From Mobula hypostoma (lineage: Eukaryota), in NCBI RefSeq assembly GCF_963921235.1, contig NC_086097.1, forward strand, positions 9,734,001 to 9,798,000: a stretch of DNA of 64,000 nucleotides. The letters run 5' to 3'. Positions 3,031 to 60,960 of the stretch are shown here, piece by piece. The position numbers were made by a program, and so were the translations under genes. Numbering within the stretch: the stretch's first letter is position 1; each line of letters starts with the position of its first letter. Below the pieces are notes generated by a model, which saw only the letters and a list, made by a program, of their open reading frames with translations, did no database searches and was not told the DNA's origin.

Positions 3031-3224
3031 CCCATCTAACAGCTTCTTCCCCCAGGATGTGATACTACTGAACTCCCAGTCAGCACCCAGGTCTCACCAC
3101 ATATAAAGCATCAGTATTGCTATACTGATAACTTTTTAAATTGTGTCAGAAATAGATTTTATTTGTTAATTGATTTGTGGTAATGTTACTACGTGTTCTT
3201 GGTTGAAGTGACAATAAGGACTAT

Positions 3225-11170: not shown

Positions 11171-11323
11171 ATAATATCCGATGTGACTGTCAGCTTTGTG
11201 TTACTGTTGAGGTGGGGGCTCACATACACCAGACCGATACAGGTTTAAAAGCAAAACTTGCAGAAAGTGCAGAAAGTAGCTTACATACTCTTACCTACAA
11301 AAAACATACACATACGAAGATCT

Positions 11324-11469
11324 CACACAACAGTTGCTGGTGAACGCAGCAGGCCAGGCAGCATCTATAAGAAGAGGTACAGTCGACGTTTTGGGCCAAG
11401 ACCCCTCGTCAGGACTAACTGATAGAAACTTGAAATTCCAGCATCTGCAGATTTCCTTATGTTTGTTGT
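11324..11469. mobile_element. Penelope-derived mini-foldback insertion with 14-bp TSD
   Basis: Minus-strand PLE 3' segment with hammerhead at 11381-11416 (GAAA decayed to AAAA), then an inverted terminal segment; ACATACGAAGATCT (11310-11323) vs ACATACAAAGATCT (11470-11483). Confidence 0.8.
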
Positions 11470-40102: not shown

Positions 40103-40569
40103 ATTCAATGTAGAAGCTTAAAAAAGGGATAAAATGAACTTGGAAAACAGCAAAGACTTGAAGAATTGCTTTGGTGGAGTTGTAGAAGACACACCAGAAC
40201 TGTGGATACAGAAGATCAGATGCTTTACAACTCCATTGACTGAATTATTCCCACTTTCTGGTTGCCTCTGTATTCTCCCTGTGACTCTGTGGGTTTCCCA
40301 TGGGGTCTCCCGTTTCCTGTGCTTGTTATTGAGTGAAATGACTACTGAAAATAACCTCCAAAGTTGGTAACTTCACACAGAGGGTGGTGAGTATATGGAG
40401 TGAGCTCCAGAGAAAATGGTAGAGGCCAGTATGATAACACTGAAAGACATTTATGCAAGTATATGGATAGAGGTCCACTCAGAACCATCAGACTCAACAA
40501 CAGTTACCTTCCCCGAGCAGTAAGGCTGATCAACATCTCCACCCACTAGCCCAACACCACTAATTTCTA

Positions 40570-40755
40570 AATAAGAGAAATACTGCAGATGCTGGAAATC
40601 CAATCAATACAATCAAAACGCTGGAGAAATTCAGCAGACCTGGCAGCATCTATGGGAAAAAAAAGTGGGTCGATGTTTCGGGCCTGGAACGTCGACTGTA
40701 CTTTTTTCATAGATGCCGCCTGGCCTGCCGAGTTCCTCCAGCGTTCTGTGTGTAC
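40570..40755. mobile_element. Penelope-derived foldback centred inside the hammerhead
   Basis: ..GGCAGCATCTATG..GTCGATGTTTCGGGCC|TGGAACGTCGACTG..CATAGATGCCGCC..; inverted arms. Confidence 0.75.
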
Positions 40756-49768: not shown

Positions 49769-49913
49769 GAGGAAATCTGCAGATGCTGGAGTTTCAAGCA
49801 ACACACATAAAAGTTGCTGGTGAATGCAGCAGACCAGGCAGCATCTATAGAAAGAGGTACAGTCGACGTTTCAGGCCGGGACCCTTCGTCAGGAACTTTT
49901 ATTAATGTTGTTT
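49769..49913. mobile_element. Penelope-derived mini-foldback with exact 15-bp TSD
   Basis: GATGAGAGTTGATAT at 49754-49768 and 49914-49928; minus-strand PLE 3' end with hammerhead core at 49861-49894, then a ~20-nt inverted arm. Confidence 0.85.
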
Positions 49914-51157
49914 GATGAGAGTTGATATTGGATGACTGGAAAATTATGCTGGTGAGGTAGTAATGAGGGAAAAGAAAGGGCAGTTGAACTTAATGAGTAG
50001 TTTGCATCAGTCTTCACTGTAGAAGACAATAGCAGTGTACCAGAGGTCCAGGAGTGAGGTCAGGGAGAAGAGTGAGAGCCATTGTCGTTACAAAGGAAAA
50101 AGTGCTGGGGAAACTCAAAGGTCTTCAGGTGGATAAGTCACCTGGACAAGATAGACTACATACCAGAGTCCTGAGAGAGGTTACTGAAGAGATAGCAGAT
50201 GCATTGGTCATGGTTTTTCAAGAACCACTTGATTCTGGCATGGTTCCAGAGGACTAGAATTTTCAAATAACACTCCACTCTTTAAGAAGGGAGGAAAACA
50301 AAAGAAAGGAAACTATAAGCCAGTTCACTTAACCTTAGTGGTTGGGAAAGTGTTGGGGTCTATTATTAAGGATGAGGTTACAGGATATTTGGAGACTAAT
50401 GATGAAATAAGTCAAGGTCAGTATGGTTTCTTTTAAAGGGAAATCTTGCCTGAAAAATTGGTGAGAATTCTTTGAGGAAGTAACTAGCTGGGTGGACAAA
50501 GGAGAGGTAGTGGCTGTCATTTACTTCAGTTTTCAAAAGACGTTTGATAAGGTACTACACATGACATTGCTTAACAAGATACAATCCTCTGGCATTACGG
50601 GAAAGATACTGCCAGAAGGCAACAAGTTGGAAAAAATGGGGGCTTTTCTTGTTGGCTGCCAGTGACTAGTGGTGTCTCTAAGTGGTCAGTATAGGCACCA
50701 TTACTTTTCCCATTGTTTGTCAATAATTTAGATAATGGTATTGATGGCTTTGTGGCAAAGTTTGTGGATGATACGAACATAGGTGGATGTTGAGGAAGCA
50801 ATATGATTGCAGCAGGACCTGGACAAATTGGAAGAATGGGCAATAAAGTGGCAGATGCAATATAGTGTTGGGAAATGGACGATAATGCATTTTGGTAAAA
50901 GGAACAATAAAGCTGACTATTATCTACATAGGGAGAAGATTCAAACATCAGAGGTGCAGAGGGACTTATGAGTCCTTGTGCAAGACTCCCAGTAAGTTAA
51001 TATACAGGTTGAGTCTCTGGTAAAAAAAATTAAAATGCAAATTTGGCATTTATTTCAAGGGGAATAGAATATTAAAACAAGGAGATAATGCAGAGCAACA
51101 CACATCAAAGTTGCTGGTGAACGCAGCAGGCCAGGCAGCATCTATAGGAAGAGGCGC

Positions 51158-51193
51158 AGTCGACGTTTCAGGCCGAGACCCTTCGTCAGGACT
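51158..51193 (-). ncRNA. Minimal type I hammerhead ribozyme motif
   Basis: AGUC-CUGACGA-AGG-GUCUCGG-CCU-GAAA-CG-UC-GACU: stem I AGUC/GACU, intact core, stem II AGG/CCU, loopless palindromic ACGU stem III. Confidence 0.85.
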
Positions 51194-51488
51194 AACTGAA
51201 GGAAGAGTGAGTAAGGGATTTGAAAGCTGGAGGGGGAGGGGGAGATGCAAAATTATAGGAGAAGACAGGAGGGGGAGGGATAGAGCCGAGAGCTGGACAG
51301 GTGATAGGCAAAAGGGGATACGAGAGGATCATGGGACAGGAGGTCCGGGAAGAAAGACGGGGGGGGGGGGTGACCCAGAGGATGGGCAAGAGGTATATTC
51401 AGAGGGACAGAGGGAGAAAAAGGAGAGTGAGAGAAAGAATGTGTGCATAAAAATGAGTAACAGCTGGGGTACGAGGGGGAGGTGGGGC

Positions 51489-54150
51489 CTAGCGGAAGTT
51501 AGAGAAGTCAATGTTCATGCCATCAGGTTGGAGGCTACCCAGACGGAATATAAAGTGTTGTTCCTCCAACCTGAGTGTGGCTTCATCTTTACAGTAGAGG
51601 AGGCCGTGGATAGACATGTCAGAATGGGAATGGGATGTGGAATTAAAATGTGTGGCCACTGGGAGATCCTGCTTTCTCTGGCGGACAGAGCGTAGATGTT
51701 CAGCAAAGCGGTCTCCCAGTCTGCGTCGGGTCTCACCAATATATAAAAGGCCACATCGGGAGCACCGGACGCAGTATATCACCCCAGTCGACTCACAGGT
51801 GAAGTGATGCCTCACCTGGAAGGACTGTTTGGGGCCCTGAATGGTGGTAAGGGAGGAAGTGTAAGGGCATGTGTAGCACTTGTTCCGCTTACACGGATAA
51901 GTGCCAGGAGGGAGATCAGTGGGGAGGGATGGGGGGGACGAATGGACAAGGGAGTTGTGTAGGGAGCAATCCCTGCGGAATGCAGAGAGAGGTGGGGAGG
52001 GAAAGATGTGCTTAGTGGTGGGATCCCGTTGGAGGTGGCGGAAGTTACGGAGAATAATATGTTGGACCCGGAGGCTGGTGGGGTGGTAGGTGAGGACCAG
52101 GGGAACCCTATTCCTAGTGGGGTGGTGGGAGGATGGAGAGAGAGCAGATGTACGTGAAATGGGGGAGATGCGTTTAAGAGCAGAGTTGATAGTGGAGGAA
52201 GGGAAGCCCCTTTCTTTAAAAAATGAAGAGATCTCCCTCGTCCTAGAATGAAAAGCCTCATCCTGAGAGCAGATGCGGCGGAGACGGAGGAATTGCGAGA
52301 AGGGGATGGCGTTTTTGCAAGAGACAGGGTGAGAAGAGGAATAGTCCAGATAGCTGTGAGAGTCAGTAGGCTTATAGTAGACATCAGTGGATAAGCTGTC
52401 TCCAGAGACAGAGACAGAAAGATCTAGAAAGGGGAGGGAGGTGTCGGAAATGGACCAGGTAAACTTGAGGGCAGGGTGAAAGTTGGAGGCAAAGTTAATA
52501 AAGTCAACGAGTTCTGCATGCGTGCAGGAAGCAGTGCCAATGCAGTCGTCGATGTAGCGAAGGAAAAGTGGGGGACAGATACCAGAATAGGCACGGAACA
52601 TAGATTGTTCCACAAACCCAACAAAAAGGCAGGCATAGCTAGGACCCATACGGGTGCCCATAGCTACACCTTTAGTTTGGAGGAAATGGGAGGAGCAAAA
52701 GGAGAAATTATTAAGAGTAAGGACTAATTCCACTAGGCAGAGCAGAGTGGTGGTAGAGGGGAACTGATTAGGTCTGGAATCCAAAAAGAAGCGTAGAGCT
52801 TTGAGACCTTCCTGATGGGGGATGGAAGTATATAAGGACTGGACATCCATGGTGAAAATAAAGCGGTGGGGGCCAGGGAACTTAAAATCATCGAAAAGTT
52901 TAAGAGCGTGAGAAGTGTCACGAACATAGGTCGGAAGGGATTGAACAAGGGGTGATAAAACAGTGTCGAGGTATGCAGAAACGAGTTCGTGGGGCAGGAG
53001 CAAGCTGAGACAATAGGTCGGCCAGGACAGGCAGGTTTGTGGATCTTGGGTAGGAGGTAGAAACGGGAAGTGCGGGGTGTGGGAACTATAAGGTTGGTAG
53101 CAGTGGATGGGAGATCCCCTGAGCGGATAAAGTCGTTGATAGTGTGGGAGACAATGGCCTGGTGCTCCTTAGTGGGGTCACGATCGAGGGGTAAATAAGA
53201 GGAGGTATCCGCGAGTTGTCGCTGTGCCTCGGCAAGGTAGAGGTCAGTACGCCAGACTACAACAGCACCCCCTTTATCAGCGGGTTTAATAATAATGTTA
53301 GGATTAGTGCGGAGGGAGTGGAGAGCAGAGCGTTCCGAAGGAGTGAGGTTAGAATGGGGACAAGGTGCGGTGAAGTCGAGACGGTTGATGTCCCGTCGGC
53401 AGTTGGCAATAAAGAGATCCAGAGCAGGCAGAAGACCAGAGCGGGGTGTCCATGAAGAAGAGGAGGGTTGAAGACGGGAGAAGGGGTCATCGGTGGGGGT
53501 GGAAGAGTCCTTGCTGAAGAAGTAGGCTCGGAGACGGAGACGGCGGAAGAAAAGTTCCGCATCATGGCGAACACGGAACTCGCTGAGGTGTGGGCGAAGG
53601 GGGACAAACGTGAGGCCCTTACTGAGAACAGAGCGTTCTGCCTCCGACAGTTGAAGGTCGGAGGGGATGGTAAAGACCCGGCACGGATGAGAGCTGGGAT
53701 CAGAGGGGGGAGGGGGGAGGCTGGGGGTGTCAGTGGAGAGGGGAGGGTTGGGGTGAGAGAAAGATGGAGCCTCTGAGGGCCCAGGAGCTGACGGTGGGAT
53801 CTGAGGAAGACGGGGCTGCGGAGTGGTGGTGGGGGAAGGGGAGACGGGAGTCACAACAGCAGCACATAAAGACCCGGCCTGGTGTTCAAGGCTGGAGTCG
53901 CAGTTGGTGGTTGCGTAATCACTTCGAATGTGTCCATGGTCGTTGCTGGAGTCCGGGTTTTGAATATGTCCTGAGGTGTTGGAGCCGCTGAGATCAATGG
54001 CAGGGGCCGCAATTGAAAGTTCATGCCTGCTAGCGTCGGGGCCGGCAGGCTCTGGAGTCCGTAGATGTAAGATCTTGCGATCTTTGCCTAACATGACAAA
54101 GTCAAAAAAACAGCGATTGCAGGCGTGGATCCGACGGAGGATGAAATAAT
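51489..54150 (-). pseudogene. PLE reverse transcriptase / GIY-YIG endonuclease polyprotein, 5'-truncated, one frameshift near 52989
   Basis: LSKGLTFVP, IIKPADKGGAVVV, PKIHKP..PGRPIVS in ORF 52733..54178; MDVQSLYTSIP, QTKGVAMG, LRYIDD, FLDL, YYKPTDSHSYLDYSSSHP, Cys linker CKRNKCYTC and VIYCVRCSRCGLLYIGET.RRL..RF.EH in ORF 51489..53003. Confidence 0.93.
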
Positions 54151-54308
54151 GAGATAAGGCAGAGGCTTTATAAGACACTAGTCAACCACACTTGGAGTAT
54201 TGTCAAACGCAAACAACAGGAATTCTGCAGATGCTGGAAATTCAAGCAACATACATCAAAGTTGCTGGTGAACGCAGCAGGCCAAGCAGCATCTATAGGA
54301 AGAGGCGC

Positions 54309-54344
54309 AGTCGACGTTTCAGGCCGAGACCCTTCGTCAGGACT
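54309..54344 (-). ncRNA. Minimal type I hammerhead ribozyme motif
   Basis: Identical to 51158-51193. Confidence 0.85.
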
Positions 54345-54965
54345 AACTGAAGGAAGAGTGAGTAAGGGATTTGAAAGCTGGAGGGGGAGGGGGAGATGCA
54401 AAATGATAGGAGAAGACAGGAGGGGGAGGGATAGAGCCGAGAGCTGGACAGGTGATAGGCAAAAGGGGATACGAGAGGATCATGGGACAGGAGGTCCGGG
54501 AAGAAAGACGGCGGGGGGGGGGTGACCCAGAGGATGGGCAAGAGGTATATTCAGAGGGACAGAGGGAGAAAAAGGAGAGTGAGAGAAAGAATGTGTGCAT
54601 AAAAATGAGTAACAGCTGGGGTACGAGGGGGAGGTGGGGCCTAGCGGAAGTTTTCTCTAACTTCCGCTAGGCCCCACCTACCCCTCGTACCCCAGCTGTT
54701 ACTCATTTTTATGCACACATTCTTTCTCTCACTCTTCTTTTTCTCCCTCTGTCCCTCTGAATATACCTCTTGCCCATCCTCTGGGTCACCCCCCCCCGCC
54801 GTCTTTCTTCCCGGACCTCCTGTCCCATGATCCTCTCGTATCCCCTTTTGCCTATCACCTGTCCAGCTCTCGGCTCTATCCCTCCCCCTCCTGTCTTCTC
54901 CTATCATTTTGCATCTCCCCCTCCCCCTCCAGCTTTCAAATCCCTTACTCACTCTTCCTTCAGTT

Positions 54966-55001
54966 AGTCCTGACGAAGGGTCTCGGCCTGAAACGTCGAC
55001 T
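54966..55001 (+). ncRNA. Minimal type I hammerhead ribozyme motif
   Basis: AGTC CTGACGA AGG GTCTCGG CCT GAAA CG TC GACT; predicted cleavage after C54997. Confidence 0.85.
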
Positions 55002-57388
55002 GCGCCTCTTCCTATAGATGCTGCTTGGCCTGCTGCGTTCACCAGCAACTTTGATGTATGTTGCTTGGAGTATTGTCAACAGTTTTGGGCCCTGTATCTC
55101 AAAGAATGTGTTGTCATTGGAGAGAGTCCAGAGGAGATTTATGACAATGATTCCAGAATAGAAGGGGTTAACATATGAGGAGAGTTTGGTAGTTTTGGGC
55201 CTGTACTCACGGGAATTTAGAAAGATGTGTGGGGATCTCATTGAAAAAACCAAATGTTGAGAGGACTAGATAAAGTGGATGTGGAAGGGTTTGTGCTATG
55301 GTGAGGGTATCCAGAACTAGAGGGCACAGCCTCAAAATTCAGGAGCAACCTTTTAGAATTGAGGTAAGGAGGAATTTTTTTTTAGTCAAAGAGTAGTTAA
55401 TCTGTGGAATGTTCTGCTCCAGACTGCAGTAGAGGCCAAGTTGATCGTTTCCTGATCGATCAGGGCATCAAAGGGTTATGGCAAGAAGGCAGATGTATGG
55501 GGTTGAGTGGGATCAAGGATCAGCCATGATGGAATGGAGCATACTCGATGGGCTGAATGGCCTAATTCTGCTCCTATATCTTATGGTCTTATGATCTAAG
55601 TGACATTGACTGTGGAATGATTGCTGATGCCTTACAGCTTGATTTGAGTATCTCACGGACAGTCTCTAAAGTCCCCTTTGCCATCCGATTCCAAAATGGA
55701 CATTGAACCCGTGAACACTACCTCACGTTTTTAATATACATTATTTCTGTTTTTTTGAATGACTTTTAATCTATTCAATATATGTATACTGTAATTGATT
55801 TACCAATTTATTTATATTATTATTTTTTTTCCTCCTATATTATGTATTGCACTGAACTGCTGCTGCTAAGTTAACAAATTTCATGACACATGCTGGTGAT
55901 AAGATACTGACTCTAATGTGTACTAAGAATGATGTGAAAAACAAAAGGTATCCAGTGAGCGGCAGTTCTGTGGATGAATTTGCTTAATGAGAGTGGTCAG
56001 AGGAGAACGGGCAGACTGGTTCAAAATGACAGAAAGGGAATTCAAATAACCATGTGTTACAACAGTGGTGTGCAGAAGAGCAGCTTTGAAGGCACAAAAC
56101 ATTGAATCTTGAAGTGAATCCACTACAGCAGCAGAAGACCACAAACATACTCTCAGTGGCCACTTTATACAGTACAGGAGGTACGTAATACAGTGGCCAC
56201 AAAGTGTATCCACCTGGAATCATAGAATACTTAGAGGAAAGAGGGAAATTATATTGTCCCTCATGACTTGATGAGCACTTACTTCGTAGTCCAATCAGTT
56301 CCATTATACCTTTCTTTCCCTACAGTCCCCAAATTATTTTTGGGAGGCCTATCAATTCTGCTTCTAAGCATCTTGTAATCCAAGAGTTGCTGATCATAAC
56401 TAGACTCCAAATTAAAATAAGATTTTCTTCCAATCAATTTGTGTTTTGCCCACATTTAAAACCTGCTTTACTTTTTAATCTTGCTCCACTTCTTCCAGAA
56501 CATTTCAAATCTATCTCTGCCTCACTCTATTTGCTGTTAAGATCTGATGATTTTGACTAACAATATACACCCCTTATTTGCTTTCCTCTGTTCATCATCC
56601 GACAATTTCAAAACACTGCATTCCAATAATTAGCAATTATTATTATTACTAGTTTCTTTTTGTGTTAGCACAATTTATCAGCCTTTGTTTGTTGGTAGTT
56701 TTTCATTGATTCTATTGTCCTTTGTTCTACTGTGAATGCTTGCAAGAAAATGAATCTCAAGATGGTATTTGGTGAGGTACTGCTTATGTACTTTGATAAT
56801 AAATTTACTTTGGACTTTGAACATTGAACTTTGAACACAGTTCACAATTGGATCTATCTCATCTTGTGCATGCTGCCTTGTATTGGCACATGCTTAAAAA
56901 AAACCCTCAATATTAAAATTCACACCCATGTTTTCAAATTCTTTCATAGACTTGTTCCTTCCCATCCTCATAGCCACCATTGGCCTGTAATCACTGAGAT
57001 ATCAGAGATCTTTCAAATCTACTGCGATAAACAAACTACCTTCAGTTGTTACAGGCCCTCTTAATAAACCTTTCAGCCTCTGTAAGGTTCAACTTTTCTC
57101 TCTTCAACAAGCCTTTCAGTGATTTTGTTTAGAAATCTGAATGTAGGAATAGGCAAAAGACATTAGAAGACAAGAACAGGTAGGACATTGAACATTAGTA
57201 CAGCACAGAAGTGGGCCCTATAGATCACAATGTCTCTGCCAACAATGATCCCAGTCACAAATAATTCCACCCACCTGCGTATCATTTGTGTCACTCCATT
57301 CCCTATCTGTCCATGTGCCTGACAAAATGCCTCTTGCTGTCTTAAATCTCCTTAAAACATTATGTTTAATATTTTAAAATGTTTTATC

Positions 57389-59719: not shown

Positions 59720-60960
59720 CCCTCATCCAGCGATGTCTTTTATAAACCAACGGACTCTCACAGCTACCTGGACTATATCACATCCCACCCTGCTACTTGT
59801 AAAAATGCCTTCCCCTTCTCTCATTTCCTCCGTTTCTACCACATCTGCTCTCAGGATGAGGCTTTTCATTCTAGAACGAAGGAGGTGTTCTCTTTTTTCA
59901 AAGAAAGAGGCTTCCCTTTCTCCACCATCAACGCTGTCCTCAACCACATCTCTTCCATTTTACACCTGTGTGCTCTTAACCGATCCTCCCACCACACTAT
60001 CAGGGATAGGATTCCTCATGTCCTCGCATACCACCCCACCAGCCTTTGCGTCCAGCACATAATTCTCCAAATCTTCCACCACTTCCAACTGGATCCCACC
60101 ACCAAACACATCTTTCTCTGCCCCCCACATTCTGCTTTTAGCAGGGATCGTTCCCTATGTGACTCCCTTGTCAATTCGTCCCTCCCCACTGATCTCCCTC
60201 CTAGCACTTATCCTTGCAAGTGGAACAAGTGCTACACATGCCCCTATACCTCCTCCTTCACAATAATCCAGGGCCCTAAACGGTCCCTCCAGTTGAGACA
60301 ACACTTCACCTGTGAGTCTGTTGGGGTCATATACTGTGTCCGGTGCTCCCGGTGTGGCCTCCTGTATATTGGTGAGACCCAATGTAGATTGGGAGATCGC
60401 TTCACCGAGCATTTATGCTCCATACGCAGAACAAGCGGGATCTCCCAGTGGCCACCCATTTTAGTTCCACTTCACATTCCCATTCCAGTATGTCCATCCA
60501 TGGCCTCCTCCACTGTTGGGATAAGGGCACACTTAGGTTGGAGGAACAACACCTTGTATTCTGTTTGGGTAGCCTCCAACCTCATGACATGAATATCGAT
60601 TTCTCAAACTTCCAGTAATGCCTCCAACACCCCTCCCTTCACCATTTCCTATCCCCTTGTCCCTCTCTCATGTTATCTCCTTTCCCACCCATCACCTTCC
60701 TCTGGTGCTTCCCCCCCCCCCCATTTTTATTTCTTCCATGTCCTTCTGTCTCTTTCATCAAACAACTTCCTAGCTCTGTGCTTCATCCATCCCCCTCTGG
60801 ATTTCAACAGTGTTTCTCTTTCCCCTCCCGCCACCTTTCAAATCTACTCCTAAGCTTTTTTTCTCCAGTCCTGACGAAGGGTTTCAGCCCAAAATGTCGA
60901 CTGTACTTTTTTCCATAGATGCTGCCTGGCGTGATGATTTCCTCCAGTATTTTGTGTGTG
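59720..60960 (+). mobile_element. Older 5'-truncated Penelope-like element (RT thumb, GIY-YIG, 3' UTR)
   Basis: ORF 59885..60592 CKWNKCYTC..GVIYCVRCSRCGLLYIGETQCRLGDRFTEH; frameshifts; hammerhead at 60867-60902 with GAAACG changed to AAAATG. Confidence 0.9.

Follow-up and report, generated by a model that had tools for sequence, protein, structure and literature searches.

Two inverted Penelope-like element 3' ends forming a young palindromic insertion in an old LINE of Mobula hypostoma

The window analysed here is a stretch of 64,000 nt from Mobula hypostoma (NCBI RefSeq assembly GCF_963921235.1, contig NC_086097.1, positions 9,734,001 to 9,798,000 of the forward strand; coordinates below count from its first letter). 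At 54191-55079 it contains a palindrome that is a real, young insertion of two inverted 3' ends of a Penelope-like element (PLE), both flanks of which belong to one old long interspersed nuclear element (LINE) lying on the + strand. From left to right, the insertion consists of a 16-bp copy of the target-site duplication (TSD), CTTGGAGTATTGTCAA (54191-54206); a 36-nt tail on the - strand (54207-54242), which is the terminal extension of the element as judged from other copies and is present in the left arm only; the left arm itself on the - strand (54243-54652), with the last 3 codons and the stop followed by the 3' untranslated region (UTR) and with 98.6% identity to the 3' end of a long neighbouring copy of the same family; the right arm on the + strand (54653-55067), with the last 5 codons and the stop (TTCTCTAACTTCCGCTAG) followed by the 3' UTR but no tail; and a second, identical copy of CTTGGAGTATTGTCAA (55064-55079). 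Both element 3' ends point outward, and the single exact 16-bp TSD brackets the two arms together, with none around either arm alone. The palindrome contains no open reading frame (ORF).

A repeat search resolved the inverted arms into a block of 279 nt with 100% identity (54243-54521/54789-55067) and a block of 139 nt with 99% identity (54514-54652/54659-54797). In gapped alignment, 54243-54652 and 54659-55067 were identical at 407/410 positions, the differences being two substitutions and one indel in a G/C run, which agrees with the near-perfect palindrome with arms of ~410 bp described in an earlier note on this DNA. Both private substitutions are located in the right arm, as is a C run 1 nt shorter than that of the left arm. 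The outer ends are asymmetric, the left arm being longer by the 36 nt at 54207-54242, and the last 4 nt of the right arm, CTTG, are also the first 4 of the duplicated target and can be assigned to either; the terminal extension of ~35 nt on one side and the overlap with the target on the other had both been recognised in the earlier note.

At the centre of the palindrome, the right arm starts on the + strand with TTCTCTAACTTCCGCTAG, reading F S N F R stop, and the left arm starts with AACTTCC, so that both end within a few codons of the ORF stop, as had been noted. At the corresponding position, where its ORF ends in ...DFSNFR*, the long neighbour has ...attgacTTCTCTAACTTCCGCTAG. The six central nucleotides, TTCTCT, are the element bases preceding the start of the left arm and form part of the right arm; the 6-nt spacer of the earlier note is thus a continuation of the element and not filler. 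The two arms meet at a blunt junction, with neither filler nor bases in common between them.

Three paralogous copies of the flanking LINE were used as a stand-in for an empty-site test. In 3/3 of these copies the 16-mer CTTGGAGTATTGTCAA occurs once and uninterrupted, and the left and right flanks of the palindrome overlap there by exactly this 16-mer, indicating that the direct repeat is a true duplication of the target site. The exact TSD and the single copy of CTTGGAGTATTGTCAA expected of the target before insertion therefore agree with these copies, which are paralogues and not an empty allele. The joints between 54184 and 55063-55068 seen in sequencing runs likewise derive from paralogous LINE copies and not from an empty allele.

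The arrangement of the family elsewhere in the genome is informative about the ends of the arms. A genome search with the 5' part of the long copy showed that 27/29 other copies extend upstream into a leader of ~420 bp, which is missing in the long neighbour, and that in 17/29 copies a partial copy lies immediately upstream of this leader, its 3' region and tail abutting the leader directly. The partial-tandem, pseudo-long terminal repeat (pLTR) arrangement of PLEs is thus present in the family, and since the upstream tail runs straight into the next leader, the tail is ordinary element sequence continuing into the next unit of a tandem RNA. The ends of insertions fall into one of two zones, zone A immediately before the tail (reference positions 3163-3167) and zone B ~24-38 nt inside it; the right arm of the palindrome ends in zone A and the left arm in zone B, which would be the two zones in which reverse transcription starts. 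The outermost 194 nt of the left arm, tail included (54207-54400), gave no match when used as a genome query, a result attributed to the skipping of very common words and silent on the rarity of this segment. If too-common words were indeed the cause, the empty search would point to an extremely high copy number there.

The earlier note had proposed a genome search for inverted pairs of PLE 3' ends, and we made two, with the palindrome centre and with a mid-arm stretch as queries. The centre query gave 733 candidates, 40 of which were scored, and revealed four more loci with both arms, all with different centres and with flanking repeats of their own. The mid-arm query gave 30 loci, which, after subtraction of two representing the present locus and two duplicates, correspond to 26 distinct other places; a head-to-head junction was found at 14 of these, but a pair contains the query twice and the true share of pairs may therefore be about one third. 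Since the centres differ between loci, the pairs represent independent events. Pooling the fetched loci yielded 20 stand-alone pairs with both outer ends in view, namely the present locus and 19 on other contigs, for which end points and TSDs were tabulated. All 20 combine one tailed with one tail-less arm, the tail-less end lying at reference 3163-3167 or earlier, and an exact flanking repeat of 12-16 bp is present in 18, the other two having repeats of 9 and 7 bp. With an independent choice of the two ends, mixed pairs should make up no more than half of the total, and by our own arithmetic 20/20 mixed pairs would then have P ~1e-6.

The inner ends of the arms are more variable. The tail-less arm extends further 5' than the tailed arm in 14/19 pairs (L003, which has a complex centre with an extra 34-nt piece, was omitted from this comparison), and with five exceptions the idea that the tail-less arm always extends further was dropped as a rule. 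An apparent concentration of inner ends around the stop codon was also discarded as an artefact of the centre query, the inner ends in the mid-arm sample spanning reference 1105-2853. The centre junctions of most other pairs show between -15 and +12 nt of overlap or filler, with larger gaps at L003, L030 and L084, whose centres are complex. At L009, L065 and the present locus, the tail-less arm begins at the same base (reference 2755, the T of TTCTCT), 15 nt before the stop; L003 begins at 2750, and L033, which was not classed as tailed or tail-less, at 2752. The common start at 2755 may reflect a pause or an end point of the template, or chance. Among nine single-armed copies checked, three were tailed and six tail-less, and an inverted tail was found at the 5' end of none of the six tail-less ones (0/6), indicating that the one-tail rule does not extend to single-armed insertions. 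At G000:C36:149227215-149232926 (L069, L090), a tail-less and a tailed long copy face one another at a distance of ~5 kb; together they may represent a single long two-armed insertion, of which they would form the ends.

We consider it likely, and the best of the explanations weighed, that the palindrome arose by a single integration of a PLE into the old LINE, in which both cut strands primed reverse transcription. The outward orientation of the 3' ends and the one TSD around both arms point to each staggered 3' end having been extended by complementary DNA (cDNA) copied from element RNA. In addition, the 6 inner nt of the right arm and the 36 outer nt of the left arm are each unique to their arm, which means that neither arm can have been copied from the other and that two template copies were needed. 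The proposal of the earlier note that both strands of a staggered cut primed reverse transcription and that the two cDNAs were joined thus gains support from the arm-unique sequence, the TSD, the 19 other pairs and the in-vitro behaviour of a purified PLE protein (PMC11167929).

Specifically, the GIY-YIG nuclease of the element would make two nicks 12-16 bp apart, producing two 3' ends, each of which would serve as a primer for copying element RNA. From the + strand end at 54206, synthesis would start at the far end of the tail in zone B, with 0-2 nt of homology, and from the - strand end at 55064-55068 it would start ~40 nt further in, in zone A, by way of the 4-nt CTTG match. Both cDNAs would halt near the ORF stop, 6 nt apart, and would be joined head to head with neither filler nor microhomology, most simply by a jump of the polymerase onto the 3' end of the other cDNA or, alternatively, by end joining; fill-in of the staggered ends would then give the target duplication. 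The order of these steps, the manner of joining and the use of one RNA are our reconstruction, drawn from an anatomy, a TSD and a single-copy target in the paralogues that are directly observed, as is the recurrence of the form in the genome.

As to a single RNA source for both arms, which the earlier note had proposed, the four sequence variants on which it relied are indeed found in both arms and are absent from the long copy, and since the arms differ from the long copy in this way, that neighbour was not the template of the palindrome. Among the fetched loci, overlapping loci included, the arm type and the long-copy type were counted as 27 vs 65, 67 vs 32, 93 vs 0 and 35 vs 33 at the four sites. 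The shared variants are therefore common polymorphisms of the family, which only faintly suggest a single source.

Several points weigh against priming on both strands as we have described it. The joining of the two cDNAs is a step that we infer. By our arithmetic, chance agreement at the three informative variant sites is expected for about 1 in 6 randomly drawn pairs of family members, so that agreement between the arms says little about their having come from the same RNA; in most older pairs the closest relative of an arm is not its partner, the partner arm being strictly the nearest relative for 6/38 arms, with seven ties, and the star-like structure of the family makes this nearest-neighbour test uninformative. 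In-vitro work reports no difference between strands in the start site, which leaves the strict one-of-each pattern unexplained (PMC11167929). Four sequencing runs yielded short contigs swamped by paralogues, and none of those listed bridges the centre of the palindrome. Finally, in 5/19 pairs the tailed arm holds all of the sequence of the tail-less arm, and a snap-back could have produced these.

Such a snap-back, in which a single target-primed cDNA folds back at its 3' end and copies itself into a second arm, was weighed as the origin of the structure. Arkhipova et al. (2013) interpreted palindromes at such junctions between inverted copies as an indication of self-priming (PMC3846280), and many junctions in the present sample do show 1-15 nt of overlap between the arms; the five pairs with an all-inclusive tailed arm also count in its favour. 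At 54191-55079, however, the right arm owns the 6 central nt yet lacks the 36-nt tail of the left arm, so that neither could have served as template for the whole of the other, and the same contradiction is met in the 14/19 pairs whose tail-less arm reaches further 5'. We regard snap-back as very unlikely here.

A fold-back artefact of assembly, or an inverted duplication at the DNA level after a single insertion, deserves consideration in that palindromes are a known assembly hazard and none of the contigs listed bridges the centre. The exact TSD and its single-copy state in the paralogous LINE copies speak against it, as do the asymmetric outer ends, the three positions at which the arms differ and the 19 analogous loci on other contigs with duplications of their own, which together make such an origin very improbable. 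Slighter still is the chance that the insertion is a copy of a non-autonomous element that was already palindromic as a whole, or that the locus is a segmental duplication: several loci have centres near the stop codon and similar arm lengths, but the clustering near the stop stems from the centre query, the inner end points differ at every locus and, among the 40 candidates scored, only 54191-55079 matches the 191-nt centre over its full length at 95-100% identity. Two unrelated insertions, the second falling in opposite orientation at precisely the point where the first is truncated 5', can practically be set aside, for although the family does insert near its own copies, as shown by the long copy 26 bp away with its own TSD, the one TSD around both arms, the blunt centre and the one-tail pattern repeated in all 20 pairs are not what independent hits would be expected to give.

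To return to priming on both strands, the invariable pairing of a tailed with a tail-less arm points to a complex that uses the two zones once each, possibly on the same RNA. That a single ribonucleoprotein (RNP) would prime both target strands on a single RNA, once in each of zones A and B, ~40 nt apart, and not in two independent priming events, is a proposal that we put forward tentatively and with more doubt than confidence. If true, it would explain why there is exactly one tail per two-armed insertion, and why the literature describes a tail at one end only. Most likely, the palindrome is neutral and serves the host in no way, being a by-product of how the element integrates; we saw no evidence of a host function.

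The structure is a typical, published form of PLE insertion that is common in this genome, and not an oddity. Both "an inverted 5'-truncated copy" and a "tail at one end" belong to the PLE structure described by Craig et al. 2021 (PMC8557442) and by Arkhipova et al. (2013; PMC3846280), the latter of whom report the same structure in rotifers and suggest self-priming. Compared with the canonical endonuclease-containing (EN+) PLE insertion as presented in those papers, the palindrome shares the head-to-head inverted 3'/pLTR part, the one-sided tail (36 nt here; 30-40 bp published), the short TSD around the whole unit, a predicted hammerhead motif in the repeated part and a family ORF with reverse transcriptase and C-terminal GIY-YIG domains. 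It differs in that the arms neither enclose nor adjoin a full-length body; their truncation points lie close to the stop and no more than 6 nt apart, leaving a bare palindrome of 0.86 kb, whereas the published figures place the inverted copy beside a pLTR-ORF-pLTR unit.

The closest biochemical parallel is the in-vitro reaction of PAc (Poseidon of Anolis carolinensis), which Frangieh et al. (2024) studied with purified PLE protein: both strands of the target were cut and then extended, and reverse transcription started internally at two adjacent sites, between which lies the tail (PMC11167929). Cleavage and extension of both strands and the two adjacent internal start sites are the features that match the present insertions; in addition, the targets of PAc are AT-rich (PMC11167929) and the duplications found here contain ATT/AAT. 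The two systems differ in that one site of each kind is used per two-armed insertion here (20/20), whereas no strand difference was reported in vitro, and in that a CX4CxxC linker is present here but absent from the Penelope/Poseidon clade. The strict pairing thus goes one step past the in-vitro data, toward a coupled use of the two start sites. A full-text literature search found no statement that head-to-head PLE pairs arise from priming on both strands, within a coverage that did not extend to the early Penelope papers, which possibly contain such a model. The strict one-of-each use of the start zones is the one modestly new lead.

In the twin priming of L1 elements, which gives rise to 5' inversions, the second target strand also primes within one event and two cDNAs are joined. 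There, the second primer anneals inside the RNA and the cDNAs cover different segments, resulting in inversion without duplication. In the palindrome, both arms copy the same 410-nt 3' segment, resulting in an inverted duplication, and the insertion does not belong to the class of L1-type twin priming. End-to-end template jumping by R2-type non-LTR elements produces blunt junctions without homology, mainly through RNA-to-RNA jumps that give tandem copies; the centre of the palindrome resembles such a jump in being blunt and free of homology, and a jump onto the end of a cDNA is what we infer in the present case.

In itself, the locus is an unremarkable product of a retroelement family that is young and very abundant, and its value is that of a clean natural footprint, with a blunt centre, arm-unique sequence, TSDs of 12-16 bp and a pairing of tailed and tail-less arms, as target-primed reverse transcription on both strands predicts. 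It also calls for caution in annotation: a third to a half of the 3'-end copies of the family are palindromic pairs, which pose difficulties for assembly and could give rise to hairpin RNA. Folded as RNA, the 861-nt palindrome forms one hairpin of -905 kcal/mol, compared with -313 +/- 8 for shuffled sequences (z = -70). Effects of a double-stranded RNA hairpin, including those through ADAR, or of a cruciform in the DNA, would follow only if such structures formed in the cell; no RNA run is recorded as containing this stretch, and the contigs from the sequencing runs do not distinguish the palindrome from its thousands of paralogues.

Each arm carries, on its own sense strand, a predicted minimal hammerhead-like motif (54313-54340 on the - strand and 54970-54997 on the + strand), and the same motif lies in the long copy (51162-51189, - strand). 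These were the only three matches in the 64 kb to a script coding the features of the minimal hammerhead described in metazoan PLEs by Cervera and de la Pena (2014), which are a CUGANGA...GAAA...UH core, an extra nucleotide before helix II, a palindromic 15.2-16.2 pair and a short helix I (PMC4209133); 100 shuffles gave no match. All three motifs read CTGACGA-A-GGGTCTCGGCCT-GAAA-CG-TC, with one unpaired A and a helix II of 4 bp, and depart from the descriptor in that the 10.1-11.1 pair is G-U, a G-C pair being called highly conserved in the same paper (PMC4209133). Rfam models gave no hammerhead match at the gathering score in the 64 kb or at E<=10 in 54100-55200, where the sole matches were hairpin-shaped microRNA models produced by the palindrome itself; the miss is expected because the motif has no helix III, and lends no support either. 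The hammerhead on each strand that the earlier note had claimed therefore stands at the level of the published descriptor, but not at that of an Rfam covariance model.

The long copy next to the palindrome (51096-54150, - strand) lacks the ~420-bp 5' leader, has a tail-less 3' end and carries its ORF in two frames. It is flanked by a TSD of its own, 14 bp in length, with GAGATAATGCAGAG at 51082-51095 and GAGATAAGGCAGAG, identical at 13/14 positions, at 54151-54164; in 3/3 paralogous LINE copies this sequence is single, the flanks overlapping by 14 bp. Between the TSDs of the two insertions are 26 bp of old LINE sequence (54165-54190, + strand), identified from the alignments with the paralogous LINE copies. 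The separate TSDs and the differing variants indicate that the long copy and the palindrome represent two insertion events. The long copy, 26 bp from the TSD of the palindrome, is oriented like the tailed arm, and the layout imitates the order of partial copy, tail, leader and body seen in the family, with 56 bp of host LINE in place of the leader. The closeness of the two could reflect a preference for insertion near resident copies or for this segment of the LINE.

The ORF of the long copy shifts frame between 52733 and 53168 (- strand), inside the overlap of two open frames, so that no intact protein is encoded by this copy. Its product matched RVT_1 with 23.6 bits (cut-off 29.6) and then, at the C-terminus, GIY-YIG with 20.7 bits (cut-off 22.6), both below the Pfam cut-offs. 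The ORF has 837 homologues at E<=1e-10, many of them recorded with PF00078 and PF01541, and one homologue, P0021, reached 25.0 bits for GIY-YIG, over the cut-off. The best named homologues are from rays, Mobula hypostoma (94%) and Hypanus sabinus. By inspection, the ORF reads ...PCKRNKCYTCPY... before GVIYCVRCSRCGLLYIG, which is a C-X4-C-X2-C linker ahead of the endonuclease. A CX2-5CxxC zinc-finger-like linker is given for the Neptune and Nematis clades, and as absent in Penelope/Poseidon, by Craig et al. 2021 (PMC8557442). Judged by this linker motif alone, the element would be a Neptune-type PLE, although the motif fits Nematis as well.

Traces of older PLE families, recognisable only over the distal ~140 nt from the hammerhead to the tail, are also present in the window. 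Single old fragments of PLE 3' ends lie at 49770-49894 and 60822-60936, and an old head-to-head pair of 3' ends (~78-80% identical), one of which extends into the tail, lies at 40569-40742. In addition, an older two-armed mini-insert (~90% identical) at ~11316-11467 is flanked by ACATAC(G/A)AAGATCT, and in it a tail-less arm of ~100 nt including the hammerhead region faces an arm consisting of the tail alone. If a single RNP does prime both strands on one RNA, this tail-only arm, which stops where the other arm starts, would represent a trailing enzyme blocked at zone A.

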